Assembly (NCBI GenBank): GCA_036172245.1
Contig: JAYWIR010000091.1
Location: 1-64,000, forward strand
DNA length: 64,000 nt
Direction of reading: 5' to 3'
Source: Raillietiella orientalis
Taxonomy: Eukaryota
Below, in pieces: positions 36,701-64,000 of the stretch. Under the pieces are notes generated by a model. That model saw only the letters and a list, made by a program, of their open reading frames with translations. It was not told the DNA's origin and did no database searches. The first letter of the stretch is position 1; each line of letters begins with the position of its first letter. Both the position numbers and the translations under genes were made by a program.

Positions 36701-37518
36701 GAGCTGGAGTTTCTTCTAATCTACTGCGACCAAAAAATGCCCCGACTTGCACATGAGAACCGACAGATGGTTGCCGCGGTGGTGATCGGAACTTAAAGAA
36801 AGAAAAAGTGCTCCGTAAACATTCTCATTGTCAGCTCATGCTCATTTCTTATTCCAGGAAGCATCAAGGGAACAAAGAAGACGTCATCGTCTGGAATGAA
36901 TTTAACATCTTTCGCGAAAACGATCGTGAGTAACAGCGTAGACAAAAACTTGACGACAATTGCAGGCAGATCTGCTGCAGTATGGATAGGCGCACAAATC
37001 TGTTGCTTGTTTGCAACCAGTATGAGCTGTTTGACGCTTGGAGTCCCATTGCTGTACCTGGAGAGGTATTTGCAAGACCGATTTAGGATGAAAACTCGTT
37101 GGCTGCAGTGGAAATACACGCGCATACTTTGGATAGCATCGGATGCTTCCCGTTAAGCGTCACGACTCGGCCCCGTGATCCCGCATTGGACCAAACCATG
37201 CAACACACGCTCCAATCAGTGTTGCAGAAAGACCAGGATTCCAGAAAGAGCCGGACTGGATGAAGGGCTGCTGCTGCTGCGGACGTTCTGAGAGTTTCGT
37301 TGTGCCACAAATTTTTTTGGCTTCGCCGAATTTTCTGCAATCGCATTGTGCCTTGCGTGCGGGAATAGTGCGCGCTGCACAACTGCTGTGAGAGAGCTAC
37401 GATCGTCAGCCGCTTCGCGACTCCTCCTTTTCACTTGTATGAGTGAGGCGCCTCATTCGAAACTCAGATAATGTTACACCCAGGAAGACTAGACTCGGTG
37501 GCGGCGCCTAGAGGCGCC
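33769..37518 (+). repeat. Left arm of ~3.7 kb inverted repeat
   Basis: Collinear reverse complement of 38779-42479; paired ORF translations (e.g. 36503+ vs 39451-, 33658- vs 41994+). Confidence 0.95.
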
Positions 37519-41700: not shown

Positions 41701-42480
41701 TGTTCTGGTTCCTGATGGGTCGCGCGCGTTCCTTCTCCGTGGATGCTACCGTCGAAACCAAACGTGGTCTCCACTTCCGTTCATCGCGTCGCAGAAAAGA
41801 ATCTTCCCAATTTGTACCGAGGTTGTCGATAGACTTGGGCTCCGTGGTACTCTCTAAAGAAGTGATTCCTTCTTTGCGAGTCTGATACTTCACATTGAGT
41901 TTGTGCTGCTGTTACGACTTGTGCAATGTTCATTTATCTTCACTTACCCGTTGAGGAAACTGCGTTGGTTCTCATTGTCCTTTTTCTGACCATGTGCGCT
42001 TTTACGGAAGCCATTCTTGCCGGTCACTGATGGCTTCTGGGGATGACTTGAATAAATTTGAATTCATACTCGCGGATGCGCTGAACGGGAGCTGCGACCT
42101 TCCGAAAGTCAAGTGCGCGCTTGGCATGCGTCCATCCATCGAACGCACTTGCGTACGGATTCCGAGTCTGCATACTTGCAAAATAGTGATTTTTTCTTCC
42201 CTTTGCAGCTATTCCTGCATCCTATGTCACATTGCTTACCTCTGTTGTTTCCCTTTAAATTGTCATCTTTCGGGTTATTTTTGTTCGTTCTTGTTTGGTA
42301 ATTCCGTCGTCATTCCCCGAATGTTCTCGTCTATCTTATGTCCGATGTGCTTCCCAATGGAACGCCCATTGGATGTTTCCAATTGTACGCAATGCACTCA
42401 ACGAAAAAGTCACGTGATTCTTCGTGGATTCGTGTGCCTCGTTGAAGTGCTCTTCAGTATGTTGCGTCCTTCTCTCGCCA
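38779..42480 (-). repeat. Right arm of ~3.7 kb inverted repeat, cut at its outer end by a delta 3' end
   Basis: See left arm; homology stops at the TTTTCACCC junction at 42481. Confidence 0.95.
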
Positions 42481-45414
42481 TTTTCACCCAGAATGCCAGG
42501 GCGTTTATTAAAATACTAACAGTCTTTGTAGTACAAGGCCTTGCTGCGGCCAGTAGTTCTCTGGTGATGTCGGGTAGTCGGTGCTTAGACCAACTTGACA
42601 CTTCACGGCAACGGATAGGTTGAAAAAATGAAAAACAAAAATAAAAGGAAAACATACAGTAAAAACACTGGTCAATTAGAGGGCCGGGATGAAATCACTG
42701 CCCGTTCCGTGGAGCTTCCATTCTTTCCAGGATGCCGACGAGGTCCTTGTACTGATTTCCCAGTAAAGGCCTTAGGGATGCTGTTCGCAGAAAGCGAGCT
42801 GCAAACTCAATGGCATCCCTTTCGCTGACATCCTCTGCTTCTTCGGATTCACTTCAAGCTGCCACAATACCGCGAACGCAGAAGAGAGCTGCTATTACAG
42901 CGGCTGGCTGCAGGGCGTACCGCACAAAGAGGAGCCGAGAAACGTCTCTGGGAAGGCCACCTTCCAGGATCCCTAAGCAGGAACCGAAACGTTCCCACAG
43001 GGGCCAGAGAGCAGCAGAGACAACTAAAAGGTGCGTGAGGATTTTACGCTGCCCACACCGGGCTCAGTTTGGTTTCACAGTTTCCCCAGTCCAATGGTGA
43101 CGGCGGGCATTGGTTGGGAGTCATCAGTGCAACAGCATCAGCGCCGACTCCTGCCGTTTTAGGGAAAGGATGCTTGTTCCTGTTATCGCTGGGGGCCACT
43201 TCAGGTCATTAGTCGTGATGCCGAGCAGCTCGCCCCTTCCTTGAAGTCCTTTGGGAAGGACGCTCAGGGTTATGGTGTCCGCCAGATGAACCATTGTCCA
43301 ACCGCTCAATAATTGTTCGCTGCCTTCCATAAGGTAAGAGACTTGCCACCTCGGCTTCCGGCTGCTGACAAGGGCCCTACGTAGGAAGGGCAGCACCGTA
43401 GCCAGGCAGGTCGTGTCTGCCTACGTTCTTCTGGCTGGACACTCCAGGATCTCGCTTAAAGTGCAGCGGGAGTATTTGCTTCGCCGTAGGCTATTCCACC
43501 TCTCGTGGCACTTCTGATTCACTATCGTCCGCGTGCCAACTGTTTCTGGAGCCATAAGCTGGAGTTGACGGGGCAGCATATCATCAACGCATTCTCCCTC
43601 GCCAGAGTGGCTGCACGTCTGTGGAGAAGGCCGCATCTTCTTGTCTTCCTTACACGACATAAAAGAAGAGATGCGAGTACTCCCGTTCCGGATGCACGTC
43701 TGGCAAGGAGGCGGGCAGGAACACACCACGGGGTGCTCCACAACTTTGCTGCGATAGCGAACACTCGTTATCGCAGCTAAATTTTTATGCGCTCCAGCGT
43801 CAGGATGCCAAGACCATTATCACGACGGGGAGCGCACAAGTCCATCAAAGGGTCTCGGCGCCTCCCCTCGCCACAAAGGGAGATGCGCAGGAGTTTCTTT
43901 GTCCTTTTTTTCATATTCATGGGGACGGGGAAAACAAAAAGTATTGGGCGAAGGATGGGGGCCGTAAAATCGCTCCATACTGCGGCCCGTTCCGGCAAGT
44001 GGAACTGCCCCTACAGGAACGGGCGGATCGCCAAGTCCACTTGCTGAAGACGACCTGACCATGTTTCTGACGGGCAGAAGTCCCCTAGCGGAACGCCAGG
44101 GTACTGCAGATGTGTGCCCGTCGGGATCCCCAGGCGGATCCAGTTAAACGGTCCTACCCACGTTGCTCCAACTGCCATTATCAACGATTTTGCCCTGTTG
44201 ACCCGTAGCCCTGTCCCACGGCTTAGCAGGTCGAAGAAATGTTCGACTGTCGTTGCCGAGGAGGACAATGAAAGCAGGAGCCCTAGATCGTCGGCATTTG
44301 CGGACACGGCAGGCGTGCCGGAACTTGAGGCTGGCAAGGCAGCCAAAGTAATCCTGCGTGCTCTCAGCACCAATACGAAGCGAGTGCTAAAGAGCAGGGG
44401 AGTGAGGCTTTTGCCCTGCCGAATCCCGCAGCGCACCGGCACGCCGTACACGTTCTGTCCTCTGAAACAGAGGTTTGTTATCGCGGCGCGCCAGCAAGAG
44501 CGCAGGAGCGCCGTTAAAGTAGGAGAAAAGCCCATTCGATGCAGAAGCTCTAGGAGGAGCTTCTCGTCCACGCAGTCGAACGATTTATGAAGGTCAACTG
44601 CGATCGCTAGAGCACCCTTGCCCTTCCGGCTGTCTCCATTCTGACCAGCGGTCACCCTTAAATAGGGGTTTTCGAGAGTTTCCTTGCGTTCTTTCATTTC
44701 TTCTTGTACATGGAACCATCTGCTGGCGAAGAACAGGTTAGCTTTTATACTTCGCCCGGGAACAGCGTAAGTCTGCTCCGGGCTAATTACGGATTCAACT
44801 ACCTGTCCGAGCCGCGCAGCTTACAGTTTCGCGACCAACTTGACGTCCGTGTTCACAACTGTGATCGGACGCCAGTTGGTTAGAATACGGAGGTCTCCTC
44901 CTTTAGGGAGAAGCCTCATCCTAGCTGACCGGAACGAGGCAGGAACATCGCCTTCTTCCCGGATCAGCTGTATCAATCTGTGCACCAAAGGAATCAACTC
45001 TGCCGCGAAGCTTTAAAAAAACTCCGCGGGCAGGCCTCCCTCCCTTGGGGCCTTCCGCCTCTTGAGCCCTTTAATCGCGGTTAGGATTTCACCGGTTGTA
45101 AAAGCTTCGTCGAGGCTTTTCATCTCTTCCTCCCCTAAGGCCGGGGATCCCTCCGGGAGCAACAGTCGCGATACGTCCCTCTCAGGAGGCTCCCTGGCGT
45201 ACAGTGAGGAATAAAATTTTCTCAGCATATGTCGAATTGCTGACGGGGCCGAGTGTTCACGGTCCTGGTCGTCCAGCAGGGTAAGCGGCCCGGACTGCCA
45301 AGCTTGCTGCTCAGTCCCAGCTCGATACTCGGCCAGGCGACGGACGTTGAGGGTCCTTGCATAACGACGGGCGTATAAATACGCATTTAGGTTGCGAGTT
45401 CCTTCCCCAAACCC
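42481..45414 (-). mobile_element. Delta copy 2: ORF2 from GFG linker motif to 3' end
   Basis: Begins GFGEGTRN; VDLHKSFD, GIRQG, NADD; ends AATAAACGCCCTGGCATTCTGGGTGAAAA. Confidence 0.92.
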
Positions 45415-45420
45415 TCTTCA

Positions 45421-47902
45421 TCGTGAGCGAACGTGTTTTTCCGTCGCTCCGCCTGCGTGGCAAGGCGAGCGTTTTTACTTGAGCATTTTGTGCTTTCACA
45501 TCGTTGGTGTCCGATGGTTACGATGCCAGAGGGCATTGCGATGAAAGTAGGCGTAAGGGAGGCTTGTTCGTCCCCACAGCCCACTGAATCAGGGGCATCC
45601 GCCCAGGATTCGTCCCAAGCGCTACAGACAAGGACTTGGAGTACCATGCTGGCAGCGCCCAGCGCCGAAGCCTTGGCAGAGCAGAAGGCCTATCGGGCAG
45701 CAGGGTAAAAACCCCCGCTGGTATACAAGGAAGGTCCATTGTTTGATGGGCGGACTGCATGCGCCTTTACGAAGGCGCGGCGAAACGCGAACATCAGAGA
45801 GCAAGATCTGCACGGCCTCTCCGTCCTCAGCGGGGGTCAGCGGGTCGAGATGGTACGCAAAGATATCACCTTGGCCGAACGCCTGATCGTCGATCCGCTG
45901 ATCGTTGATGGTGAGAAGATCTTGCCGGTGACGATGGATCGCTCCGTAGTGGTCCATCTCACCGGGACCACCAGCCGAGTGACGCAGTCAGCGGTTGGTG
46001 ATCAGTTATGCAGGCACGCTGAAGTGCACGCGTTGTGGCCGACGCCTACGATTTTTAAAAGCTAGAATAGCCTTTTCGGGGGCCAAGCCGCGGCGTGAGT
46101 CACGGTAAAAGAGGGCGGTGCGCTTACCTACAAGCTGGAGGTCTGCCAAGAAGCGATAGACGTCTGGTAAGTAAGGAAATCCCAATTTTGTGGCTACTGC
46201 AATGCAGTAGGGCATCTTAGGAAAAGGTGCCCGAACATTGTGTGCCACTTATGCGGGGTGTAAAGGCACGTTCGACGCGTGTGCCCCAAGCGCCTTACCT
46301 TGGTGCCCACTGCTGCCAAAAAAGCACAGGGAAAACGTGCGAAACTGGTCGAAAGACCAACGCAGGGAAACAGCCGTTCCCAGCCGCCAGCCCCAGCTCC
46401 TCATGCAAAGGCGGGGGGAGAAAATACTCCCGAAGACGCGAGAGTGAAGAAGGGTTAGCAGTTGGTTAAGGCCAAGAGAGAAAACAAGAAAATTCTGGCA
46501 GAAGAAAAGTCGGAGAAGAAAACTGCCGGCAAAAAGAAAAAAGCTGCGCCGCTTTCTAAAGAACTCCGGGAATGCTCGGTGGCATTGGTACGCTTAGCCG
46601 TTCCTGCCGAGGCCGCCTACGGCATTGCTCAACAGATAGCTGCTGAGGTCGCAACCGGTAATCGCGTGGACGAACCCATTCTACGTTTAGAGGGTGAGAC
46701 GCGAAACTCGCGGGCCGACAGCGAGGACGCCGCGCTCAGTAAGGTCGCAGAGGAGCCCGCGGCAACGTTCGCCGTCAGCAAGGACGCCGCGCTCGGTAAG
46801 GTCGCGGAGGAGGGCGCGGCAACGTTTGCCGCCAGCGAGGACGCCGCGCTCGATCAGGTCGCGGAAAAGCCCGCGGCAAGGCTCACCGATTGCGAGGACG
46901 TCGCCTTCGAAAAAGCGGTGGAGGAGCTCGCAGCAACGCTTGGCGAGCGCGAAACCCCGTTGCACAAGGGCGTCCGCAGGCCGGCACCGAAGAAAGTGCC
47001 TCCCAAAAGTGAGTCCGACCGGGAGGCCGGATATTCATCCTCCTCCGCGGAGGTACCTCCTCGAAAGGCAGGACGCTAGTCCCAGAAGCCCAAAAGGTGC
47101 CTTCCCGTTTCAAGCGAGGAGCAAACAGAGGAAGATCACGGCAGCGTGGCGGCCCCGGAGGGGGATCCTCCATGCGCGGACGCTGGCGCACAGGCGACGC
47201 CTATGGAGGAGGGTGAGCAGCGTAACGAAGCCAACCCTGCATGCGCCGAACCCAAGAAACCCGCCCCTATTGAGGAGGGCGATCAGGTAGGCGCGATCAC
47301 ACCTTCGGGAGACACGCCTGAGGCGCCGACACCAATGGAGAAGGAGGATCAGGTTCTCGACGCACGACCCGTTTCCCTCCTAGCCTCCCGCCCCAAGAGT
47401 TGGCGGACACCGCAATGCCACTTTCCCAGGATTCACACCTGGGCTCGCCTGTCGCCGTCGGAACCGCGCGGTCAGTTGGAATGTCAACGGGCTGCGCGAC
47501 GACGGCAGCAAACGAGATACAGCCGACACGCTGCGTGAGCTCGAACTGGCTCTGCAGCAGGAGATCAACGTGATCTTCGCGGTGGACGTCCACGAGATCG
47601 AATCGATCGCGTGGGGTCTGTTATACTAGCAAAGCGGCGCCCGCAACATCCGTATGGTCACGCTTTTTGTGAAGTCAGCCGTCGACGCTGCCTTGAAGGG
47701 CGTGCGTTTTGATGACGACGGTCAGGTCAACCAGCTGATTCTCAAATGGTCCGACTCAATCGACTTAAACGTCAGACACGTGTATGCCCCCAGCGGTAAG
47801 CAGAGGTACCGCGACCGTACTAGGTTGCTGCAGACGCTGAAGCGCGACTGGCTGGCGGACACGAACGTGCGAATGGCTCACCTGATGACGGGAGATTTCA
47901 AT
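45421..47902 (+). mobile_element. Beta, left part: 5' UTR, ORF1, EN up to GDFN
   Basis: GAGCGAACGTGTTTT 45425-45439; decayed ORF1 knuckles; WNVNG 47477; ends GGAGATTTCAAT 47891-47902. Confidence 0.88.
46720..46940 (+). repeat. 57-bp (19 aa) tandem repeat x4 in ORF1
   Basis: AGCRAGGACGCCGCG at 46720, 46777, 46834; SEDAALxKVAEEPAATF units. Confidence 0.88.
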
Positions 47903-49764
47903 CGAGTGCGGACGTGTTTTCCTTCGCTCTCGCCTCCGTGCTTTCATCCGCTTCATCTTGGCGTCGTACATTTTGACGACGATGTCGACCCAACTTGGAG
48001 CTACTGAAGGAGGAACAGCATCCGGATCTGCAATCGCGGAACCTACGGCCGCCTCCACTTCGTCTTTCTCGCCAATGGAGAGGAGTTTTGCTGACGTTGC
48101 TGCCACAGCAGCCGTCAAAGGGAAACCACTCGACGAGTCGGAGTTGCGGGCATACGTAGCCCAAGGCTATAGACCTGCTCTCCGATATGAGGTGAGTGGT
48201 TTTCTTTCTGCGCGCGACGGGAATCAGTTCAATGATGAACTAACCCGTTTTGGCGTGCGGGAGGAGGACCTTCTCGTTATTATGCCCGTAAAAGACATGG
48301 GCAATTTCAAGGTGCGTTGCAAAGACGCTGCACTTGTGCAACGCTTGCTGCGCAACCCGTTGTCGATCCGTGGCCACAAGGTCTTCCCAGCCGCCATGGA
48401 CGACTCATTTGTGGCGGAGATTTTCGACATCGAGTCAAAAATCTCCGATATTGATATTCGGAACGCGTTGGAGAAATTCGCGACGGTCCATGCGCAGTGG
48501 AGGGTGCGTAGCAACCTCAAGGACTTCCCGTCCATACACAGCGGAGTCGCTGGAGTCCGGCTTACAATGCCAGACCGCCGTCTGCTGCCTACCAAACTAC
48601 AGGTAAAAGACACGGTCGTTCACCTGTTGTTCGTGGGCAAAGTAAGAACGTGCGAGCAATGCGGGAAGGAGGGGCATTGTTTGGATAAATGCCCCTCTGG
48701 AAAATGCCGTTATTGCAAACTATCCGGGCACCAATTGAAAAATTGCCCGGATCGTTTGCGAAAAAAGGCAGCCGCGGAGCTTCATCTTAAGAAACAAAGC
48801 GCGGATAATAAAAAAAAATCTGCGAAAAACCTGGAGACCCCACGGCAGAAATTCGGTAAAAACGCGAGGCGGAATGTCGCTCCAAAGCAGCAGGAAACCT
48901 CGCACGCGAAGCCCTGCGCACCCCCTCTCGCAGCAGGGGAGCCGCAAAAGAAAGGGTGCGGGGAATCCGGGGCAATGGTAAGTCCCCCTGGGCGCAATAG
49001 CTGTCCTTCCCAAGCACGCCCGGATCTTTCGGATTTCGAGCAACCGGCGGGGACGTCAATGGACAACGGCGGTAAGGACACCTCCAGTACCGTCAGATCC
49101 ATTCCTTCACCTCCTGCACTGGCTGAGAAGCCCAAATCGGGTAAGAAGGGTTGTGCCGTGTTAACTTCGAAAGTCGGCAAAAAAAAATCCGCGTCGCGAT
49201 CCAACATTGCGGAAGCGGAGAAAACTCTCACGCCGTCGCAGTCGGAGAGCAAGCTCTCGACTGGCGGGGATGCCATGCCAACGAAGGGATTGAAAGCCCT
49301 TCCGAAGGCAGCGTCCATGACGAGCGTGTCGAAGCCATCCAAAGTGCTCCCGTCCAAAGACGCGGATGGCTTCAAAGATGGCAATGGAGCACAATCTTTA
49401 TTTATGGCGCCACGCGAAGTGAGGAACCGTAATGAAGTAAAGAAGACTTCAGCAAAGGTCCCTCGTGCAACTGCGCGTGAGCACGCTGAAAACGCGCGCG
49501 CCGGGAAAGCAGCCGTCACCAAAAGCGATGCTCTGGAGACTGAAAAAGACAACAGGACAGCTGTCAATCCAGCAGAACCTGTCACTACTTCGCGGGAGGC
49601 CGAAACCCGATCTAACATGCGCCGGTCGGACTCCGAAATGGATGCCGTCCCGATCACCGAGACGAGGACAACTCGTTCAATAGCGTGTGCTCCCCGATCA
49701 AAAGTAGGCAGCCAGGCAACGCCCGCCGCTAAGCAGCGCGAAGTCTCCACGAAACCCAACGGGG
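47903..49764 (+). mobile_element. Gamma, 5' end and almost complete ORF1
   Basis: CGAGTGCGGACGTGTTTT start; open 611-codon frame with ERSFADVAA, CEQCGKEGHCLDKC, CRYCKLSGHQLKNC. Confidence 0.92.
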
Positions 49765-51915
49765 TTTTTCACACGGGTAAGCCTGGGCTTTGATTACTAA
49801 AATTTTAACATTACAAAATTTTGTAATCAAGTCTATGTTCTTAAAATTTTTCGCTTTACGACGTCAGAAGTTCAGTGCAGAAGTTCAGTAGCACTTGTCC
49901 TTACCGACCCGGAGGCCGATAAGGTCCTTCACTGGCGCCGAGACGGGAAAAATAAAAGAAAACAAAAACAAAAAAAGAAAAACGTCTTGAGGGCAAAGTT
50001 TTTTGGGGAGGGGGAGGGAGGGGGGGATTATGGTGCGCCGTGAGCCGGCCTTTGCATCCGGTTTCGGATGCGAACAAGTGCTGGCAAATGATTTTGAAGT
50101 CGGCGCCAACGGCACGCTTTCTCCAAGGAGATCGCAGCCCAGTGGATGGCATTCCGGCTGGTCCTACCTCTCCTAGACGCGGTTCACTTCTCCAGGATAC
50201 CGCGTATGCAGCAGAGCACTGCTACGCTCCCGGGGGCTGGCAAGTTGTCTCGCGTCAGAAGGCGTGTGAATAAATTTTTCGTGTCACCCTCCGGAATGTT
50301 GAGGATCGACGAGAGTCTGTCCACATTTCGTGGAGGGCAACACACTCCAGAACCAAGTGGGAGAAGGTCTCCCTTTCCCCGCATTCTGCACAACTAGCAT
50401 CCACATTCCCCGATTTCCAGCGTGACAGGCGTGCTCTGCTTAAAAGTCCCCAGTGGAGCAGACGCAACGCCGTCTCCTGCCACTGCAGGGGAAGGGTGCC
50501 GTTGTCGCATGACGCTGGGGGCCACTTCACCTCCTCCGGAGGTATACCGAGCAGCGCGCCTTAGCGTAAAAGTCCGTTCTGCGGGACACTCGGAGTACTA
50601 GCGTTCGCTAGTTCCCACGGCGTCCACGCCTTCAGTGATTTTTTCCTGCCTCCGATGAGGCAGGACACTTCCCATGAGGCCTGTTGGTGGCTGTGTCGAA
50701 CTTCCCTGAGGGAGGCAGCACTGGGGCAAGGGGGGTGAAGGAAGCCCACAGAAGTTTCCGTGGGTTGGAAGCGATCTCCTGGAGTGGCTGACCAGCGTGC
50801 ATTCCTCTGCGGAGGCAGGAGAAGTCCTCATCGCTGGTGCCATTGATCTTCGCCCATGCGGATACGGACGCCTGAAGCCAGGTTGTCCAGTCCGCTGGGA
50901 TGCAGGAGATCCAAGGGTTGTCTCTCATCAGAGCAACCAAATCCCGCAGCTGATAACCACAATGGTTCAGGCTGCGTTTGTTGGCTACCAGGATTGAAGT
51001 CAATCCGAAGCACCTGGTTGCCCTGTGAGCAAGGAGTCTTGCTGGTGCACACCAGGGTGCTGTCCAAAACTTTGCCACAAGGGCAAGTTTTCTGAATTGG
51101 AGCTGCCGCTCCATGCGCTCCAACGTCAGGAGACCAAGTCCACCGTCCCTGCGTGGAGCGCACAAGTCTTTGAGCCGGACGCGAGGCCTCCGGTAGCCCC
51201 TGAGGGCTTTGTGTATAAGGACCCTAGTCCGTGTCCTAATTTGATACAAGGTAGGGCACACAAAAAGTAGGGGGCGAAGGAGGGGTTCCGCGAGAGCGTT
51301 CCATACCGTGGCCCGTTCCTGCAAGCGAAACTTGCCGTTCCGGAACGGGCCGATCGCCACGTCCACCTTTTGTAGACGGTCGGACCAGGCTTCTGCAGAG
51401 AAGAAGTGCCACAACGTAACGCGAAGGAACTTGATGTGCCTGCCCTTGGGGATCCCCAAGCGGATCCAGTCCGACCGTCCGGCCCTCTTCGAGTCGGTGA
51501 AAAGCAACGACGACTTCGTCCTGTTCACCTGGAGGCCTGTCCCACGGTATAGCAACTCGAAGAAATCCTCGAGCGCCGATGCCGGGGAGGACCTGGGAAG
51601 CAGGAGCAGAAGATCGTCGGCATAGGTCGACACGGAAGGCGTGCCGGGACACAAGCTCGGCAAGGTTGCCAAAGTCTCCCTGTATGCTCTCAGCACCAAC
51701 TCAAAGTAGATGCAGAAGAGCAGGGGGCTGAGGCTGTCACCTTGCCGGATGCCACGACGAACCGGCACGCGGAACACGTGCCGGCCGCTGAAATTAATAT
51801 TTATGAACGCGTAGCTCTGGCAGGAGCGCAGGTAGGCCAGGAAGACGGCCGGAAATGCCAAGGGTTCCAGGAGCTCCAGAAGGAGCTCCTGGTCGACGCA
51901 GTCGAAAACTTTACG
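49765..51915 (-). mobile_element. Epsilon copy 2: RT from KAFD-site to 3' end
   Basis: Begins RKVFDCVDQELL; 409 aa ORF with QGDSLSP, YADD; ends AATCAAAGCCCAGGCTTACCCGTGTGAAAAA. Confidence 0.9.
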
Positions 51916-51919
51916 TCGG

Positions 51920-51937
51920 CTAGAGCGGACGTGTTTC
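51920..51937 (+). promoter_or_regulatory. Conserved 5'-terminal motif (candidate internal promoter or initiator), representative copy
   Basis: GAGCGGACGTGTTT variants at element starts near 4983-5000(-), 9190(-), 15852(-), 25833(-), 26191, 27393(-), 45425, 47904. Confidence 0.6.
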
Positions 51938-53728
51938 CTCGGTGCTCCTCGTGCCGGGAAGCGTCCCTAGGTGTAGGCTTCGAGTGTGGTGGTGGTCGAT
52001 CAGGCAGCAATGCCTGACACGACCACCAGTGCGTGTCAGGGGGCGGTGGCAACGTCGCCTCCTGAAGAAATGTTGTGCCAGGTGGCGGCGGCAACGTCGC
52101 CTATAGAGAATGTGGAGTGCCAGGAGGCGGCGGCAACGTCGCCTTCAGTGGCGAAGGAGGAGGAAGCGTTCGCCCTCACAAAACCGGTCCCCGTTGCAGC
52201 GCGTGCTTGGAGCGCCGTCGTGTCGGCGCCATCGCCTGCAGCCGCGGCGGAATTATCTGCCTATGTGGAAGAGGGGTATAACCCATCACTATTCTACAAG
52301 GTAGGCAATTTGTATTCTGCTGAGATTGCTTGCGCCTTTTCGAAGGGGATGCGCGCTCTCGATGTTAAAGAGAAGGAGCTCTGCGCTATGACCGTTCCTA
52401 GCGGAGGGCAGTACGTAGAGGTGATCTGCAAACATGCAGATCTGGCACAACGTCTGCTTGAAACCCCCGTAATAATGAAGACACTAAGGTTCCTTCCCGT
52501 TACGGCGGACCACAGTATGGTGTTCCACCTTCTAGGAGTTACCGCGCGGATGCAGAAAGAACAGTTACGCGCCGCGTTGGGAAAAGAAGGCACGGTCCAT
52601 GCAGTATGGACCAAGACTAGTCCTTTCGAGGACTATACCACAGTTCAGTGCGGCCTCACGGCTGCCCGTGTAACCGTTTGGGAGAACTGTACCCTTCCCC
52701 ACAAACTGGTGGTCGGCGGAGAAAGCGTCGACCTCTGGTACGTGAGGAAGCCGAAATACTGTGGCTTCTGCAACACATCGCGACACCTCAAAAGGAGGTG
52801 CCCCAACGTACAGTGCCTGGTATGCGGGACAATGGGTCACACGAAGGAAGTGTGTCCACAATCCGCTGTGCGCGTGGTTACCGCGAGGAACCTAAGAAAA
52901 CGCGCGCGGCTGCTACGGAAACAACTGGCGGCGAAGGCTGCCGCTCAAGATGTGCCACCCACTCTCGTGGTCCAGGTCTCAGCCGACACCCCGGCAACGA
53001 ATGCCGAAAAGATCGACAAAAGCGGTCAGGAGTCGAAATGGCAAGAGGTCACAGCGAAAAAGAAAAAAAAGTCGAAGAATGAACGACGAATTGAAAAAAA
53101 AGTTCGCCTACCAAAATAAAAAACAGCAGGTTAGCGAGAATTTAAAAGAATGCAGCGTCGTAGTGGAACTTGTCCCCGCCGAACGCCGCAAGGTAGAAAT
53201 CGCTGCTACCTACGAGCAACCCACTGTTGAAAATGTCAACAGCGTGGGGAGCGAACCCACGGAAGCGTCCGTCATCGAGGCCGTGATCGATGACGCCGCC
53301 TTCTAGCGTGCGGCGGAGGATCTGGCTGCATAGTTGCAGCCAGACCCCTCGAAGGCTGGCAAAAAGGCAGTGAGGCGTCCGGCCTCAACCGAGGAGTCGG
53401 TAACTTCCGACCCCGAAGCGAAGACCGGAAACCAAGTTTCTATTTTGGCGGCACCCCGCTGGAAGGCTCGAAGGAAGGACAGGAAACCGGGGAAAGCCCC
53501 TCTCCAGGTCGAAGGCGTGGAGATGACTTCCCACTGCGAGGGTGCCATTAGCGTGGGAGAATCCCGGGAATCGTCACCCGAGAGACCACCACGCACAGAC
53601 ACGGAGGAGATGGAGGGGGCTGAAGCCGGAAAGGTACTCAAGGCGCCTGAGGAGACTGGAACCCTAATGGTCAAATCACCCGCCTCCGAAGAGGCAGGTT
53701 CCCCCACACCGTCGTCTTCCCGGCAGTA

Positions 53729-55333
53729 ATGCCGGCAATCTCCTCCCACCGTCGTCTGCGCATCGCCGTTTGGAACGTGAACGGCATGACAGACGCCGGA
53801 AGGAGGCGAGACATGGCCGCCATCCTAGGATCGTTCGACCTTGCGCTGCTACTGGAGATCCATGTGATCTCTTCAGAACCAGCGCAGGAGATCAAACGCA
53901 TCTCAGGAGGGCAGCTGTTGTATGGGTGTGGAAGATCGAGAAGTTGTGGTGTCGCCTACCTGCTTCGGCCCGCCATCGAGGCGGCTGCCCGTGGACTTCA
54001 GTTCGACGATCACGGTCGTGTCGGCCAGCTGACTCTCAGCTGGACCGACTTGATCGACCTGATCGTTACAAACGTTTACGTCCCGAGCGGAGCGGACCTG
54101 ACGAACAGGAGGGCCAGGAAAGAATTTTTCCTTGCCCTCCATTGCAACTGGTTGACCGAGGCAGGCGTGCGGAATGCCCATGTGGTTGCAGGCGATTTTA
54201 ACGTTCGTATGAACCCGGATGGGCCTAATCACGAGCGTGACCTGGTCAACGAGGTGTGCGCGGCGGTGCACACTTGTAATTTGTTAGCCAGTGTACCAGG
54301 GATGGACGACAACATCGATCACGTGTTCCTTGACGAGCACCTGTGCACTCGTGTGGGCGGGCGCTGCAAGTTGCCGTGCGAGTTGTCCGACCATCGACCA
54401 ATCGTGATTGAAATCCATCCGCGCAACAGGGGCCCCCCCTCGTCAGCGTGGCGTTTGCCAGAAGACTGGCTGAAGCTCCCGGACGCGACGGAACATCTCC
54501 GCACGTTCATACGGAGCTTTAAGATGCAGGCACTTCAGGATTGGGACTGCTTTAAACGGTCGGTCCAGGAGTTCTGCGACCAGTTCCCTCTGCACCCCCT
54601 AGCTGTGGGATTTGGGGACGAAGTACGTAACAAACGAGCCTATCTGCAGGCTCGCCGTTACGCCAGGACCCTTGACATCCGCAGGCTAACAGGATACAAA
54701 GCGGGAGCCAAGAGGCAAGCCTGGCAGTCAGGATCGGCCTGCTTGCTGGACGATCAGGGCCAGGAGCATACGGCACCCGTTCAGATCCGCGGTCTGCTGC
54801 GGAGTTTTTACTCCTCCCTGTACGCAAGAACTCCTCCCGAGCGGGATTTCTTACGAATCCTGCTTCCGGAAGGCGCTTCTGCGATCGGGGAAGAAAAGAA
54901 AAAGTCCCTCGACGAGTGTTTCACGATGGGGGAGATCATCTCGGCCATCGGAAGGCTCAAGAGGCGAAAGGCTCCAGAAGAGGACGGCCTGTCCGCGGAG
55001 TTTTATCAAACTTCCGCGGATGAGCTAACCCCCCTGGTACATCAACTCACCTTACTGATACGCAAGACAGGTGACTTTCCCGCCTCGTTTCGTTCGGCAA
55101 AGATGCGGCTTCTCTCTTTGGGAGGAGATCTGAGGAGCATGAACAACTGGCGTTTCATCACAATAGTGAATGCGGATGCCAAGTTGATAGCTAAGGTTTG
55201 GGCTGAGCGCTTGAAACGGGTTGCAAACGCCTACATCAGCCCGGAACAGACGTATGCTGTTCCGGGGCGAAGCATGAAGGCGAACCTGTTCCACGCTTCC
55301 ACCTGGCTAGAGCTCCAACACGAAAGGGCTTGA
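53729..55333 (+). pseudogene. ORF2 N-terminal half: APE endonuclease, linker, RT start
   Basis: 534 aa: VWNVNG, LLE, NVYVP, GDFN, IDH, SDH, then NADAKL, SPEQTYAVPGRS; frameshift at ~55328. Confidence 0.9.
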
Positions 55334-57529
55334 TGCGCACCGGGAATTCCGGTGAGTCCGTCAGTCATGCGACGGATGGTCGGATGGGAGAGGGAGCACT
55401 TGCGTTCGCTGTCGACTTGGGTAAAGCATTCGACAGCGTCGACCAGAATCTCCTGCTGGAGCTTTTGGAACGCTTAGGCTTCTCGGCCTCATTATTGGCC
55501 TATCTGCGCTCTAGCTGGCGCGATGCACAAATCAATGTTACTTTCAGCGGGCATACTATTCACGGTGTGCCGGTGCTACGTGGGATCCGGCAAGAAGACA
55601 GCCTGAGCCCCTTGCTGTTCAGTACCTACTTTGAGTTGGTACTGAAAGCGTACAGGTAAACTCTGGCGCACCTGCCGCATGAATGCGCCGGAACGCCTGC
55701 AATTTCAGCATATGCAGACGACCTCCTGCTACTGCTCCCTATTTCCACTCCAACTTCGGCGGTTTAGAAGTTCTTCGACCTGCTGAATCAAGGAACCGGA
55801 CTTACGGTGAACTGGGCGAAGTCGTCCGTGATGCCAGTTGGTGCGGCGTGGGCAGGGAAGCAAGACTGTCTCCGTTTGGGGATGCCCACGGTGACGTACT
55901 TCAAGTACCTTGGTGTGCGTTGGGGGACTACTCCCCTGCGGAAGCGTTGTCCGGTTGCCTTCAAAAAGTAGAGACGGCTATCGGCCCGTTCCGAGGCGGC
56001 TCGTTTTTCCTGCCTGAACGGGCCGCGGTTTGGAAGATGTTCGCTGCTCCTCTCCTCCGTTGTCTGCTTTTTGTTTGCCCCCCAACAGAGAGGATCAAAA
56101 AGCGGACGAAGGACCTTCTCCGTATCGCGCCTTCGGGCAACGGGAGGGCCCGTGTCCGCTTGAAGGACTTGTGCGCTCCGCGTCGGAACGGTGGTCTCGG
56201 CCTCCTGACATTGGAGCGGCTGGAGCTGTAGCTCCAGTTCCGGATTTTAACACTTGTGCCGGAGTTGTGGTGCACCTGTTGGTGCGTCCCTGCACGTCTC
56301 CACCTTCAGCAAGCCACCGGCAATACGGGACTTACGTTGTTTCTGGCACTCCATCGAAGCCGCATCAACCGAATTGGGCTTGATCTACGGAGGTTGGCTG
56401 CGCTGGCAAGCAAAAATCAAGGATGGATCACCTGTCTCCACGCAAACGGTAGTGCCTGGTTGCAGGAAACCGTTCGCACGTGGGGACAGTTGGGCATGCA
56501 ACCCTCCCATCAGGAACGAAGGATCCTGTTTGGGTGTTACAGAAGTTGCACGCTCAGAGAGATCCTGAAGGATCCTAAGAAGAGAGCGTGGTCAGCAAGA
56601 ACCCCCCTCGCTGCTGCGCTGGACTCCCTAGTGGAACATCAGGACAGCGATGTTGCGGCGAAGTGGGAGGTTACAATAAAAATCTCCGGGAATGAGAAGA
56701 AGCAGAGAGAGTGGAAGATGGGCCAGCTAACTGATGCTGCGACCCCGAGTACGCCTTCTAATGGACTTCTATGCTGGAGAGCTCTGCTGGATGTTCCGAT
56801 TGAACATCTGAAGTGGCCCCCGATTCTTATGAACACTTCCTTCCTCCCCTTAAAATAGCAAGAGTCGGCATTCCTGTTGCAGCACTGGGGACTCCCCTGC
56901 AACGCCCGTCGACACCACTGGACCTTTGGAGCGTTGGATCCCAATTGTGTGAGGTGCGGGGAACGGGTTTTCCTCCCCCACCTCCTAGTGGATTGTGTTG
57001 CCCTTCGACCCCTTTGGTTCGGCTTTGCCGCGGCCATCGGTGTCCCTTGCAGCAACCCCAGGGACGCACTAAAAGCCTTTTTCGTTGTCGACACCCTCCG
57101 GCCAGCATCCTCGATAGAAGCCTTGTTCTGCCTTCGTGGCTTCGTCGCCGCCTGGAGCACGGTGACGGGAGGACCTAGCGATCAGGAAGCCATTTAGTGC
57201 GCCTCCGAATTCCTGAGGAGGGCGTCGCGATCATTCCACCTGGATGTTCACAACAAACAAGAGGTTGCCAGCATCCTGAGAGGGATGATGCGGCCCCAGC
57301 AGCATCAGTGATCCCTTCCCGTTCCCTCCCACCCTTTGTTTTCTTTTCTTTAGTTTTTTTGTTTTTGCCCTTTCCCCTGCTGCCTTGGTTGACAGTACCG
57401 GTCAATAAACCGGTGAATTGGCAGGCGCCGTGGTTCTTAGCTTCTGGCTGGAGGATTGCCACAGCCATAAATAATTTGTTTACAAAGTTTATTTTCTTAA
57501 TAAACGACCCGGAGAAATCTGGGTGAAAA

Positions 57530-57749
57530 TCGAACGCCTTGTGGAGATCGACCGCGACCGCCAAGGCACCTGGCGTACCCTCCTGCCGTCGGAGGCTGTT
57601 CTTCTTGCCTGCGGCAGTGAGTTTCTCAGCAGCCTGGCTTCGCTGCGCCACAACTTCCTGAAGCTGCATCCATGTACGCGCGAATAGGATGTTCGCCTCC
57701 ATGGATCGTCCCGGAACCGCGTTGGTTTGTTCCGGGCTCACCACAGATT
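57530..57749 (-). mobile_element. RT fragment ending at HKAFD (right flank of alpha copy 2)
   Basis: SPEQTNAVPGRSMEAN...ALAVAVDLHKAFD. Confidence 0.9.
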
Positions 57750-59815
57750 CCGCGTGTACGGTATTCCCGTGTTTTGGGGCATCCGACAGGGCGACAGCTT
57801 AAGCCCGTTGCTTTTCAGCATCTTCTCTAAGCTGGTGCTAAGAGCATACAGGCTGACGCTGACTCACTTGCGAAGCTTCTGCCCGGGAACGCCTGACGTG
57901 GCCGCCTACGCTGATGACCTGCTTCTTCTGTTCCCCATGTCCAACCCGTCGTCCAGTGTCGAGGATTTTTTCGACCTGATTCGTCGGGGAGCGGGCGTGA
58001 GCGTGAACAGAGAGAAGAGTGTGGTCGTTCCTGTGAGTACGTCGTTGGAGGGGCAGTCCGACTGGATGCGCCTGGGGATCCCCACGGGCGGGTACTTTAA
58101 GTACCTTGGCGTTCCGTTGAGCGCTTTCGGAGCAGCCGGAACGTGAGCGGACTGTCTTCAGAAAGCAGAGTTGGCCATCAGCCCGTTCTTTAACGGCAAG
58201 TTTACCTTGCAGGAACGGGCGACTATTTGGAACACCTTTGTGGCCCCCCTCCTCCGTCCCCTGTTTTTTGTTTTGGACCCCCCCTTTGCAGCGAAACAGC
58301 GGGCTAAACGCCTTCTCAGGAACGCACTCTGGGGTCCGGCGAGATCCAGGATCCACCTTGAAAATTTGTTAGTTCCGCTTCGGGATGCTGGTTTGGGTAT
58401 CCTGACAATGGAGCGAATCGGACTGCAGGTGCAGTTCCGACTGCTGGCACTGTGTGCCCAGCTATGGACGTCCCCCCTGTGTGTTCCAGCCCGCATTTTC
58501 CTGCGGAGATGCGCAGGCAGCGAAAGATTTCTCTCGCTTTTGCCGGGCACTCAATACAGGAAGCGGGGTTTGGGGTTTCCATTGCGGCATTTGACCGCTC
58601 TTCTGGAAGCACACTCGTGGATCTCCTGCCGCCCAATGGACTTTGAAGCTTGGCGGCAGGAGTCTATTGAATCCTGGATGACGTTCAAAGGAATGCGCTC
58701 TGAAGTTCTTCGCCCCCTGCGCCAATTCTTTCCGCGATCCTTGGAAGAAGTACTGCAGGACGAGGTGAAGTTTTCTACCGTGGCTGCCACGCCGGTTTCC
58801 GCAGCGCTGTCTGCCCTCAGGGCAAGAAACGACAGTTACCAACTGGCGAGGTGGGAGGTTTCCTGCACGATAGCGGGAAAACCAAAATCCTTGGCGCCTG
58901 GAAGACGAGTGAGTTGGCGGACGCCGCCACTCCTCGTGTTATTGCAAAGGGACTCCTCCGGTGGGCAGAAGAACTTGCTGTCACCCCCGTAGAACTTGTA
59001 GTCCCACCACAGTGTATTGACTGTTCGCTGCTCTTCCTTGTTTGTAAACAAGCCGTGCTGCTTTTCGTTCACTGGGGTTTTCAGTGCAACGAGCGTTGGC
59101 ATCGTGACTCCGGGGGACTTGCGTCTGGGAACTGCGCTCGGTGCGGATCGACGGAGTCGATTCCGTACCTACTTCTGAACTGCGGTGTCCTACAAGGACT
59201 GTGGCGTAGGCTCGCAACAGCACTAATGCATCCCGTGGACACCGCAAGAGACTTGCTGCGACGATTCTTCACGCCGAGAGGGCTGTCACTAAGCGCAAGG
59301 ATTGCAACCATCGGTTGCATACGCGCGATAGTTTCCGTCCGCCAGGCGTTGGTAATCAACGGACAGCACAAAGAGGTAATCAGCAAAGCATCCTTTTACA
59401 TGAGAGCATCCGCTAGATGGCCTTATTTGACAGAGGAGACAAAAAGGAATCTCGCCGCAATACACCGCCGGTCTACACACGCTCAGCCGCGGCCAACCCG
59501 GTGATCATTGCCCTACCCTCCATACACTAATTTTGTATTTTCTTTTTACCAGCGTCCCCATAGGCTCCGGAACATTTCAGGTGCTCATCGTATAAATCCC
59601 CGTGAGTACGGAGCCTATCCAAAATACCGTTACCCTTCCCTCCAGTTTTTGATTTTTGTTTGTTTCTCCTCATTCCTCCCACGCTGCGAACGGTTTGTTT
59701 ACCAGGCCTGCGTGCCGGTAATTTTTCTATGTTTTCTGTCCTTCTGTTGGTTGGGGACTTTGTCCCTGACCAGTTTATTATTATTAATAAACGCTCCGGC
59801 GTGACCTGGTGATAA
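57750..59815 (+). mobile_element. Gamma 3' part: RT C-half to 3' end
   Basis: QGDSLSP, YADD, HWGFQCN, CARCG; AATAAA 59786-59791, CCGGCGTGACCTGGTGATAA. Confidence 0.92.
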
Positions 59816-62800
59816 ATTTCAATCTCTGCCTGCTAACGGGTGAGCCGGCAACACATGAGAGTGTGATGAACGAGTTGTGCTCCGCCATGCCTGCTCGCAA
59901 CTTGTTCGCGGGAGAGGAGGAAATGGTCCACAGCATCGATCACGTCTTCCTCAACGCTGACCTGTGCTCACGGGCCGGCAAACGGGGCAAGATTGCGTAG
60001 ACGCTGTCGGACCATTACCGGATAATTTTCGAGATGCGGCCGCACGACAAGGGAGCGTCATCAAGGGCGTGGCGTCTGTCGGGGGACTGGATGCGACTCT
60101 CAGGTGCGAAGGAACATCTTTGCAAATTTCTTAGAGGCGTCACGCTCAAGAGTTTGCAGGACTGGGTCCATATTAAGGAATCAGTACGGGAGTTCTGCGA
60201 GAAGTTCCCCCTGGACCGCGTCTTCCTAGGATTTGGAGAAGGGTCTCGCAATCATCGGTCCTATTTACAGACCCGTCGGTACGAGAGAACCCCTAATGTC
60301 CGTCGCCTGGAGGAACAGAGCGCTGGGGCCTAACGCCAAGACCGGCAATCCGGGTCGGCCAGCTTCCTGGATGACCAGGGCAGGGAACGGTCTTCCCCGG
60401 CGGCGGTACGGCATTTCGTGCGGGGATATTATTCCTCCCCTTACTCCAGGGCGCCCCCGGAGCGAGACGTTTCTCGGCATTTGCTTCCGGATGGTGCCCT
60501 CGTAAAAGTAGAGGAGGAAATGTCAAGCCTCGACGAGCCTTTTTCCACCGGCGAAAGTCTCGCCGGTGTCAAATAGCTCAAAAGTCGTTAAGCTCCAGGG
60601 AAGGACGGCCTGCTCTCGGAGTTCCTTCAGAGCTTTGTGGAAGAGCTGGCACCCAGGCTGTTTAAGTTGACAAGGCTTATCCGAGACGAAGACAATGTTC
60701 CCGCCTCGTTTTGGTCAGCCAGAGTGACGCTCCTTCCAAAAGAAGGAGACCTGAGAAAACTCACCAGTTGGCGTCCGAACACAATTGTGAATGCGCACGC
60801 CAAGCTGATCGCCAGGCTGTGGGCTATGCGTTGGGGACAGGTAGCCAATACCATAATTATCCCGGAGCAGACTTACCCTGTTCTTTGGCGAAGTATGGAG
60901 GTCAACGTTTTCTTCGCGGTCACATGGTTGCATGTGCAGAGGTCTCATAATGAAGGACATGGGAAAATCGACAATTCCACTTTGGGGCCGCCAGTCGGGC
61001 AGGGAAGCAACTTTCTGGCTGGGAAAGGATTCCTAGCGATCGCGGTCGATCTGCATAAAGCGTTTGACTGCTTGGACCAGGATCTCCTCTTGGAGATCCT
61101 GGGGCGCATGGGCTTCCCACCCTCTCTGACAACTTATTTGCGCTCCTGCTAGCGCAGTGCGATGATAACCGTTGTTTTCAGAAGTCAGCAGGTGTATGGC
61201 GTGCCGGTGCGGAGGGGCATAAGGCAGGGTGACAGCCTCAGTCCCCTGCACTTTAACACCTACTTTGATTTGGTGCTGAGAGAGTATAGGGTGCCAACGG
61301 AGCCTTGCCTTTTGTTTTCCCCACCCCCGTAGAATGCAAAAAGAGGACTGAGGACCATCTGCCCTCTGGGGCAGCGGGAAGCCCCGTGTGCCTCTGAAGG
61401 ATTTATGCGCTCCGCGCCGGAATGGCGGTGTTAGCCTCCTGACGTTGCAGCGCTTGGAGATTCAGCTGCGATGGCGCACCCTCGCTATCGCAGCGAAGAC
61501 TTGGTCCACCCCTTTGAGCGTTCCGGCTCGCCTTCTCGCCAGCCGTGTGTCCCGGTGCGAAGAGCTCGCGTGTTTTCTTCTGTGCCTTGCCCGGAAGATC
61601 CGAAGATGCGGCCTACAGCTCCACCGCATTGCATCCTATGCGAAGGAGAACAGCTGGATGGTTTGCAGCCCCGCCAACTGCTCTGCATGACTGGAAAAGA
61701 ATATCGGCACCTAAGCTGTCGTAAACCAGATGAGCCACGAATCGTGGTATCGTCTCCGATGCATCCCCTACGCCCGTTGCAAGCAGCGGAATCTCCTGGA
61801 TAGCCCCGATAGAAGCATGTGGGCGGAGACGACCTGCCCAGCTACGGCGATGCCCTTTCTGAGGAGGGCGCTTAACAGCAGCTGAAAGCTGGGGAATCCC
61901 GCTGCGGAATCTCCTGGAGAGTCCAGCAAGATGCACGTGGGCAAAGACGACCTGTCTAGCTACGGCGCTGCCCTTCCTGAAGAGGGCACTTCACAGCAGC
62001 CGGACGCCAAGGTGGCAAGTCTCCTGCTGCATCGAGGGACGCGAAAAGTTGATCAGCGGCTGGACAACAATAGAACTGGCAGACGCCACGACCCCGAGCG
62101 TCCAGCCGCGAGGACTAAGAAGATGGGGCGAGCTGCTGGCCATCCCTATGGATGTGCTGAAGTGGCCCCCGCTTCTTCAGGAATCCAGGATCCTGCCTCT
62201 TAAGTGGAAAGAGTCGGCGTTGCTGTTGTTGCATTGGGGTTTACCCTGCAACGCACGCCGCTCTCACTGGACAAGAGGAGTTGTGGATCCTGCGTGTGTC
62301 AGGTGCGGAGAGCGGGAATCGCTCTCCCACCTTATTATGGACTGTGCTGCCCTTCGTCCCCTTTGGAAACGGTTTGGGACGATCCTCGGTCTCCCAACGG
62401 GCAGTTCCCCTAGAGACGTTCTTCGGCCCCTCTTCGTGAAAGACGCCCTGCAGCCAGCCGCAGCCCTTGCAGCCTTGTGCTGCGTCCGAGGCATCGTGGC
62501 GGCATGGAGCGACACCAACAAGGAAGGAGTGGTTCAACACGCGAGGGATGTCATCCCATATTCCCAATGCTTCTTGCGAAGAGCTGCCGGATGGCCCCAA
62601 CTGGGGAATATGAGGACTCACCTCGAGGGCTTCGTTCGACGGATGGGCCCTCTCCACAGCGAACAGTGATCCCTTCCCTGCCCTCCAACTTCTTTTTGTT
62701 TGTTTCTTTTTATTTTACTTTTTGTCTTATCCCCATCCCCCTTCGCTGTCGGGGAGTGCCACGCCGGGCTGCGTCCCGGTGTCCCGACAGGTCCTGTGTT

Positions 62801-62874
62801 TACGGCCGTGGTGGGGCCTAGTACCACGCATGTAAAGTTGATTAATAAACGCCCCGGGCGTACCCGGGTGATAA
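59816..62874 (+). mobile_element. Beta, right part: EN from (D)FN to 3' end, with internal deletion near 61290
   Basis: Starts ATTTCAAT; SIDH, GFGEG, DLHKAFD, QGDSLSP, CVRCGERESLSHLIMDC; AATAAA 62844-62849, CCCGGG-CGTA-CCCGGGTGATAA. Confidence 0.9.
62844..62874 (+). terminator. Conserved 3'-terminal AATAAA plus hairpin, representative copy
   Basis: Same layout at about 13 element ends in the window. Confidence 0.7.
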
Positions 62875-63297
62875 CGCCGAATTCAAGGGGCAGGCGATCC
62901 AGGGGCAACTGCTCACAGAACTCGCGGACGGATTCCTTAAAAAGATCTCAGTCCTGGAGATTCCGGAGCGTGACGCCTTTCAGGTATTCGCGAAGGTGTT
63001 CCTTCGCACCTGAGAGTCGCGTCCAGTCCCCCGGCAGACGCCAATCCCTGGATGGCGGTAATTAGTCGCGAGGCCGCTTCTCGAAAATTAGCCGGGAATA
63101 GTCCAACAACGTCGACACAACCCTCCCCCGTTTGCCGACGCGTGAACACAGGTCAGCGTCCAGGAAGACGTGGTCGATGCTGCGGACCATTCCTCTCTCA
63201 CCCGCGAACAAGTTGCGCGCACGCATCGTGGCGCACAACCCGTTCATCGCGTTCACATGTGTTTCCGGCTCACCTGTTAGCAGGCGGACATTGAAAT
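62875..63297 (-). mobile_element. EN/linker fragment bounded by the GDFN site and the GFG site
   Basis: FNVRLL...SIDH...PLDRLPLEFG; both ends coincide with recurrent insertion sites. Confidence 0.9.
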
Positions 63298-64000
63298 TTA
63301 TCACCCGGTCACGCCGGGGCGTTTATGAATAATAATAAACTGGTCAGGGACAATGTCCTTAACCAACAGAACGACAGAGAACATAGAAAAATTACCGGCA
63401 CGCAGGCCTGGTAAACAAACCGCTCGCAGCGCGGGAGGAATGAGGGGAAACAAACAAAAATCAAAAACTGGAGGGAAGGGTAACGGGTTTTTGGTTAGGC
63501 TCCGTACTCACGGGGATTTATACGATGAGCACCTAACATGTTCCGGAGCCAATGGGGATGCGGGTGTAAAAAGAAAATACAAATTTAGTTTATGGAGGGT
63601 AGGGCAATGATCACCGGGTTGTCCGCTGATGAGGGTGTGTCAACCGGTGGTGTATTGCGGCGAGATTCCTCTTTGTCTCCTCTGTCAAATGAGGCCATCT
63701 AGCGGATGCTCCCATGTAGAAGGATGCTTTGCTGATTACCTCTTGGTGCTGTCCGTTGATTACCAACGCCTGGCGGACGGAAACTATCGCGCGTATGCAA
63801 CCGATGGTTGCAATCCTTGCGCTTAGTGAAAGCCCGCTCGGCGTGAAGAATCGTCGCAGAAAGTCTCTTGCGGTGTCCACGGGATGCAATAGTGCTGTTG
63901 CCAGCCTACGCCACAGTCCTTGTAGGACACCGCAGTCCAGAAGTAGGTGCGGAATCGACTCCGTCGATCCGCACCGAACGCAGTTCTCAGACGCAAGTCC
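63298..64000 (-). mobile_element. Gamma 3' end, runs off the window
   Basis: Highly similar to 59115-59815; ends ATAAACGCCCCGGCGTGACCGGGTGATAA. Confidence 0.92.

Follow-up and report, generated by a model that had tools for sequence, protein, structure and literature searches.

The stretch of DNA analysed here comprises 64,000 nucleotides of Raillietiella orientalis (contig JAYWIR010000091.1, positions 1 to 64,000, of assembly GCA_036172245.1; hereafter the window), and most of it consists of long interspersed nuclear elements (LINEs) that lie within one another. The reading favored here, to which a probability of roughly 0.68 is assigned, is that at least three LINE lineages integrate at fixed sequences inside copies of their relatives, so that the cluster grows by mutual homing. 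The three sites lie in coding motifs of the host element, namely in motif A of the reverse transcriptase (RT), in the linker between endonuclease (EN) and RT, and in the EN codons for the residues GDFN, and are referred to as the alpha-, beta- and gamma-type sites after the families inserted there. At each of the three sites the 3′ junctions of separately arrived copies fall on the same base of the host, and at the alpha- and gamma-type sites short target-site duplications (TSDs) flank the inserts.

The full-length alpha element (51916–57529) served as a ruler, onto which all other fragments were mapped by sensitive blastn. The 3′ end has the same structure in every family, TTAATAAACG-CCCGG-(6–7 bases)-CCGGGTG, followed by an A-rich tail of merely 3–5 A, and 13 such canonical 3′ ends were catalogued, 12 by motif scan and that of epsilon by direct reading. 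A 5′-terminal GCGGACGTGTTTT is present in six LINE copies at no more than two mismatches, while two more matches are doubtful. Because both ends are conserved, junctions can be placed to the base. In all families the tail of 3–5 A is preceded by a terminal palindrome (CCCGG, 6–7 bases, CCGGG; e.g., 57499–57529), which may be a recognition hairpin for the RT; a consensus fold of twelve 3′ ends, with the alignment out of register, gave a weak hairpin of four pairs that differs from the visible CCCGG...CCGGG palindrome. The elements and fragments that enter the argument are as follows:

1–2397, plus strand: E1, with its 3′ end at TTCGGC^ of an antisense element (2398 to ~4995; el2398)
11787–17969, plus strand: delta1, in two halves (11787–13210 and 15881–17969), host of the alpha-like element
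13211–15880, minus strand: alpha-like element, 3′ part 13211–13905 and 5′ part 14679–15880, antisense in RT motif A of delta1
24492–26190, minus strand: gamma-like copy, full length at its 5′ end (from 25858 downwards) and inserted in sense into an alpha-like EN fragment (25859–26190)
42481–45414, minus strand: delta2, delta family, from ruler ~2693 to the 3′ end, with a canonical 3′ end at 42481
45415/45421–47902, plus strand: beta 5′ part, with full-length 5′ end motif, open reading frame 1 (ORF1) and EN as far as the GDFN codons
47903–49764, plus strand: gamma 5′ part, with full-length 5′ end and an open ORF1 that has two CCHC knuckles
49765 to ~51913/51915, minus strand: epsilon, 3′ part of an E3-clade LINE, with its 3′ end at 49765, reaching RT motif A
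~51914/51916–57529, plus strand: alpha, full length, 5.6 kb, with ORF1, APE EN and RT
57530–57757, minus strand: RT piece, ruler ~3300–3530, gamma-clade by likeness, ending at the alpha target site
57758–59816, plus strand: gamma 3′ part, from ruler ~3647 to the 3′ end
59817–62874, plus strand: beta 3′ part, from ruler ~2290 to the 3′ end, which lies at TTCGGC^ of an antisense copy
62875–63297, minus strand: "host" piece, beta family, ruler ~2290–2700, between a gamma-type and a beta-type site
63298–64000, minus strand: 3′ end of another gamma-family copy, placed at the GDFN codons in the host piece 62875–63297

The alpha-type site is defined by two inserts. The 3′ end of alpha is followed by TCGAACGCCTTGTGGAG and that of the minus-strand alpha-like element (13211–15880) by TCGAACGCTTTATGAAGG; read in the host sense, the nick falls in both cases at ...GCGTTCGA^CTGCG, within the motif A codons of the RT (V-D-L-x-K-A-F-D). 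The two elements are full-length antisense insertions, their 3′ ends (2/2) are at the identical base, and the ~11-bp duplications on their flanks agree at 8/11 and 10/11 bases. Alpha, whose ORF1 is open and whose ORF2 is split over three frame segments, lies between epsilon and the piece that starts at 57530 as its hosts, and the alpha-like element, itself interrupted by a plus-strand 3′ fragment at 13906–14678, lies in delta1. Two of the eight copies that cover the site are occupied, and delta2 is uninterrupted there although it is a near relative of delta1 (85–87% identical). Motif A of alpha and E1 is AAAGCATTCGACAGCGT, that of the occupied hosts GCGTTCGACTGCGT, and the alpha RT has two changes beside the nick site (GCA TTC GAC AGC, against GCG TTC GAC TGC in both occupied hosts); this hints, short of proof, that alpha may be protected from self-insertion by its own motif-A changes.

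At the beta-type site, the bases GCCGAA come next after the 3′ ends of both beta (62874) and E1 (2397), again at the identical base in 2/2 cases. In the host sense the nick reads ...TTCGGC^GA and lies in the EN–RT linker at ruler ~2700, the inserts are antisense, and 2/6 copies covering the site are occupied. In E1, an alpha-like RT core is joined to a beta-like 3′ part. The first ~1 kb of this mosaic is 87–93% identical to alpha, and the remainder is 55–66% identical to alpha versus 71–81% to the beta 3′ part, all within a single colinear alignment in which the switch is sharp and remote from any junction. The mosaic is a product of recombination, conversion or chimeric insertion. The beta 3′ part has an internal RT deletion at about 61290–61306.

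The gamma-type site differs in that the insert lies in sense. Both gamma (59816) and the second gamma copy (63298, minus strand) are followed by TTTCAAT at their 3′ ends, and the gamma 5′ part sits at GATTTCAAT of beta's EN, its 5′ end directly after GGAGATTTCAAT, the GDFN codons, with a duplication of 7–8 bp. The two 3′ ends are at the same base (2/2), and of the two 5′ junctions one is exact and one is shifted ~11 bases downstream, namely that of the gamma-like copy (25858, minus strand), which starts ~11 bases beyond the last GDFN codon and would fit the same first nick as for gamma with a longer duplication. The EN fragment that hosts this gamma-like copy is 77% identical to the EN of alpha, and 3/6 copies covering the site are occupied. 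In delta1, a deletion (11969–12015) has removed ~130 bases of EN together with the GDFN codons; it begins directly after a TTTCAAT derived from other codons.

Whether the repeated junctions were copied together with their surroundings can be judged from how the copies differ. Codon phase was taken from tblastn matches and differences were tallied per codon position (first/second/third). Differences are even between delta1 and delta2 (0.136/0.114/0.137), between the two gamma 3′ parts (0.062/0.039/0.062) and between the beta 3′ part and the host piece (0.159/0.188/0.209), and these pairs are, by the pattern of their changes, dead copies of one family. The third position is the most changed between alpha and the alpha-like element (0.167/0.143/0.326), E1 and the beta 3′ part (0.241/0.174/0.388), el2398 and the host piece (0.283/0.297/0.551), epsilon and delta1 (0.318/0.275/0.481), and the gamma 5′ part and the gamma-like copy (0.271/0.176/0.486). 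Because of this third-position bias, the pairs with repeated junctions diverged as working elements, under purifying selection, and arrived separately.

Six of the 13 catalogued 3′ ends thus form three pairs, each at the identical base and in the same orientation in the host LINE, so that at three sites independent copies, with two 3′ junctions each, share the exact base of a repeated target. With 12 LINE-borne 3′ junctions, 0.04 coincident pairs are expected within 3 bases on the same strand, and the Poisson probability of at least three is about 1e-5. It is therefore highly improbable that elements inserted at random into a LINE-rich region and that the repeated junctions were then multiplied, whether through segmental duplication or through read-through chimeras that retrotransposed. 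Such a history would suit a region that is mostly LINE and in which copies recombine, as the E1 mosaic indicates, and one repeated junction, the gamma-type, is indeed carried by a 1.1-kb inverted repeat (59115–60219 versus 64000–62894, 89.5% identical). However, the gamma (insert) parts of this repeat are 6.0% apart and the host parts 18.4% (Fisher test, 2e-10), so it is not one duplicated block; the remaining repeated junctions join different families, with third-position-biased differences, and delta2 has no alpha-type insert despite its closeness to delta1. Gene conversion between 59115–60219 and 62894–64000 was also considered as the origin of the beta-like host piece and rejected, since a single tract does not match divergences of 6% and 18.4%.

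For 42481–63297, a five-level nest symmetric about alpha had been proposed, and every block was found in the proposed order and on the proposed strand, with coordinates off by a few bases at most; the block order bears out the symmetry. That this order arose as a clean nest (delta < beta < gamma < epsilon < alpha) through five simple insertions, one after another, in a cyclic family network is nonetheless quite unlikely. The symmetric order and the base-accurate boundaries speak for it, as do the equal distances of the beta 5′ and 3′ parts from delta1 (68% and 69%) and the lower divergence of the gamma copies (6% apart) compared with the beta copies (18% apart), which makes gamma the younger, as such a nest predicts. 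The flanks do not fit. Delta2, which adjoins a non-LINE repeat at its 3′ end, ends upstream at the beta-type target site and is the 5′ flank of beta, in line with the proposed insertion of beta into delta, but the 3′ flank, the host piece 62875–63297, is 81.6% identical to the beta 3′ part, and to delta1 it is 71.8% identical with a third-position bias, whereas delta2 is 85.1% identical (Fisher tests, 2e-7 and 3e-9). By these identities and codon patterns the host piece belongs to the beta family and is not the missing half of delta2, and the putative duplication across beta's two flanks (delta2 and host piece) matches at 5/9 bases. Going by sequence likeness, each flank of beta ends at the correct site, yet their families differ.

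The same applies to alpha, as can be judged with the help of a sequencing run of a related genome, kept as contigs (X1; 9% of sampled words, 90–96% alike), which bears on the related genome and not on the present assembly and whose uncovered parts are uninformative. One X1 contig begins 28 bases before gamma's 5′ end and another extends 18 bases past the gamma 3′ end, both with the same flank as in the window. A contig of 3755 bases contains, in this order, the 28-base flank, the gamma 5′ part (47875–49766), 1627 extra bases and the reverse complement of 57530–57754 (95.6% identity); the 1627 bases are absent from the window and include a 43-base match to delta2 (ruler ~3229–3271). As this contig is colinear with gamma 5′ and holds the RT piece 57530–57757, the piece is assigned to the gamma family. 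Within the window its nearest relative is el9230 (70%), followed at a distance by delta (59–62%), and in the RT tree el9230 is the sister of gamma while epsilon groups with E3. With a gamma-clade piece on one side and the E3-clade epsilon on the other, alpha's flanks also differ in family. Furthermore, gamma 5′ ends at ruler ~1860 and gamma 3′ restarts at 3647, so that the window lacks ~1.8 kb of the element between the two. The predicted contact of a delta 3′ end with a gamma-like EN at 17969 is seen for delta1, with the EN fragment antisense, but the window does not contain gamma's EN for a comparison; the closest relative of the fragment in the window is the EN at 7069–7760 (70% identity). 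Of the five-level nest, the symmetric order and the boundaries stand, and the simple succession of insertions is not supported. With regard to gamma itself, the ORF1 frame (47889–49790) is open over 634 codons and X1 carries the family at 94–96% identity, including an uninterrupted 5′ half, and the gamma family may have been active recently.

The odd flank pairs could have arisen by recombination between inserts of the same lineage in different hosts, by template-switch chimeric insertion, or by an assembly join. We infer that the present order at 42481–64000 reflects a nest that was later altered by recombination of copies or chimeric insertion, or that contains assembly joins. That the block order is in part an artefact, with near-identical inserts collapsed or mis-joined and separate two-level insertions as the real locus, is unlikely: the flanks of beta and alpha, different in family and each ending at the correct target site, are what a join within a shared insert gives, but true recombination between copies yields the same picture, E1 switches sharply within a colinear alignment and far from junctions, and neither N runs, of which the 64-kb window has none, nor coverage data give any sign of a join.

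L1 insertions can bring a 5′ inversion or a large deletion of the target, as in twin priming and chimeric L1 insertion. Similar traits are seen here, as antisense 5′-truncated inserts go with host losses of 1.8 and 3.7 kb and an inverted RT piece lies beside gamma 3′; in contrast to twin-primed L1, the inverted piece is on the wrong side for epsilon, and for gamma, alpha and epsilon would intervene before the target flank. Twin priming was considered for beta 5′ with delta2 and for 57530–57757 with gamma 3′, where the topology fits in part, and was dropped because the flanks end at recurrent target sites and, in the latter case, because alpha and epsilon separate the inverted piece from any target flank. 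In the two cases of host deletion (3.7 kb at 13906 and 1.8 kb at 57757/57758), the ruler position at which the insert is truncated is close to that at which the host restarts (~4810 versus 4919 and ~3300 versus 3647, respectively).

Several points weigh against homing to fixed sites inside relatives. Each site is known from two or three events, all within one 64-kb window, and as the LINE-rich blocks (1–31000 and 42481–64000) make up ~82% of the window, the fact that junctions mostly lie in LINEs carries no weight on its own. The two delta junctions in the window have unlike flanks: at 17969 delta abuts an antisense EN fragment, and at 42481 it adjoins the end of a non-LINE repeat. The two junctions of the epsilon/E3 clade share no site; that of epsilon is antisense at the end of gamma's ORF1, and that of E3 is in sense, with the EN domain of another element lying about 190 bases downstream. 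The 3′ ends at 14678, 30127 and 30818 each have a single, different flank, and the flank also differs at one gamma-type 3′ end in X1. Two 5′ junctions fall only near a site, that of el7777 ~80 bases from the beta-type and that of el2398 ~60 bases from the alpha-type site, both of which are weak cases. Finally, the RT tree places E1 with alpha although this element is located at a beta-type site, while its 3′ half is beta-like.

The junctions fit integration by target-primed reverse transcription, with the first nick at a fixed bond inside another LINE copy, cDNA synthesis starting at the A-rich end of the element without base pairing to the primer, and the second nick 7–11 bases from the first. 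The alpha lineage would nick the host sense strand at ...GCGTTCGA^CTGCG and leave an antisense full-length insert with a duplication of ~11 bp, the beta lineage would nick at ...TTCGGC^GA in the EN–RT linker and likewise insert antisense, and the gamma lineage would insert in sense at the GDFN codons of EN (GATTTCAAT) with a duplication of 7–8 bp. By analogy with R1, the specificity of which is attributed to its APE endonuclease (PMC1919474), the APE endonuclease would be the likeliest source of the site specificity here. Of the site-specific inserts, alpha and beta alone have their EN inside the window. With conserved coding motifs as targets, the majority of families in the clade could act as hosts, including relatives of the insert, and the cluster would therefore grow by elements homing into one another.

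The insertions seen in the window form a network of this kind. Alpha-type inserts lie in epsilon, in a gamma-clade RT and in delta; beta-type inserts in a beta-family copy, in delta (5′ flank only) and in el2398; and gamma-type inserts in two beta-family copies and in the EN that resembles alpha's. In addition, epsilon is inserted into gamma and an el9230-like fragment into the alpha-like element. The original prediction had envisaged a possibly cyclic network, and of this a two-way link remains, with one example of alpha in a gamma-clade RT and one of a gamma-like element in an alpha-like EN, short of a strict cycle of families. Mutual and same-family insertions are expected where the targets are conserved codons. 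The further proposal that the clade had divided up its relatives as target sites agrees with three recurrent, base-exact sites in different host families, but not with delta and epsilon, which show no fixed site in the window. Somewhat short of even odds, and thus tentative, is the stronger version, a radiation of endonuclease-bearing LINEs in which sister lineages each evolved a base-precise target of their own within the best-conserved EN and RT codons of relatives (GDFN, KAFD and the EN–RT linker), as parasites of parasites with two-way targeting and with alpha possibly protected against itself.

The elements of both LINE-rich blocks can be classed from their domain content. Pfam matches, taken from stop-to-stop frames, to the APE endonuclease (Exo_endo_phos) and RVT_1, together with weak ones to zf-RVT (E 4e-5 to 5e-3, all under the Pfam cut-off of 27.5 bits), are dispersed on both strands over 1–31000 and 42481–64000. 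One open frame of alpha (53651–55330) contains Exo_endo_phos (E 1.3e-9) and RVT_1, and one frame of 560 codons has EN followed by the start of RT. The ORF1 translations of gamma and alpha each show two CCHC knuckles when read from the sequence, for which no Pfam family exceeded its threshold. EN thus lies upstream of RT in ORF2, ORF1 has a nucleic-acid-binding module, TSDs are present, and the 3′ end is A-rich without long terminal repeats; by this domain order and the CCHC-bearing ORF1, the elements are L1-type LINEs. At least five RT clades occur inside this one window (RT tree). Searches of public proteins returned distant L1-like proteins only, of which the named ones are mostly from plants (24–28% identity); one metagenome protein (P0011) is 55% identical, and a metagenome scan with the RT alignment turned up one weak locus (L001), which is 29% identical across 73 residues and does not help with junctions.

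Two groups of known elements resemble this arrangement. Tx1 elements sit in another transposon. Target-specific LINEs with an APE endonuclease are grouped in the R1 (R1, TRAS, and SART) and Tx1 clades (PMC4640811), and like the present elements they insert recurrently at one exact base of a multicopy target, which is viewed as a safe site (PMC4640811, PMC1919474). The targets listed there are rRNA, snRNA and tRNA genes, telomeric repeats and microsatellites, in contrast to the EN and RT codons of sister LINEs here, and the likeness drawn here is one of behaviour. Zepp of Chlorella and Coccomyxa and ZeppL of green algae are, like the present elements, L1-type LINEs that insert into existing copies and form nested clusters. 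As described, each Zepp or ZeppL cluster contains one family, mostly as 5′-truncated 3′ ends, whereas the window holds several families at 62–75% identity, many full-length inserts with at least six full-length 5′ ends, and three lineages with their own base-precise sites in coding motifs. Descriptions of ZeppL in PMC9940879, PMC11005252 and the preprint 10.1101/2025.03.28.645958 name no target site. In the open-access literature searched, no report turned up of LINE lineages that insert at fixed positions within EN or RT codons of other LINEs.

If the favored reading is true, lineages that target catalytic codons in their sister LINEs link site-specific LINEs with nested clusters of the Zepp type, and the growth of LINE-only clusters gains a mechanism at the level of sequence. 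In some algae, LINE-only clusters are candidate centromeres. The window would also offer a natural series of related APE endonucleases with different known targets of 10–20 bases for studies of specificity, and would make it possible to test if transposons become resistant at the sites they themselves target.

Outside the elements discussed above, the G+C content is ~55% across the LINE-rich parts, and the A+T-richer middle of the window contains a 3.7-kb inverted repeat (33769–37453 versus 38793–42479, 86% identical) without a Pfam match in frames of at least 118 codons; the likeness of its two arms stops exactly at the start of the delta2 3′ end. A LINE of a different clade lies at 20812–24011 (EN, E 1.5e-12; RVT_1, E 2e-29) and is barely alignable to the alpha ruler. 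At 26190–26500, a plus-strand piece with a 5′-end-like motif at its start (two mismatches) is flanked by the minus-strand EN 25859–26190 and by a minus-strand ORF1 (26500–27037).

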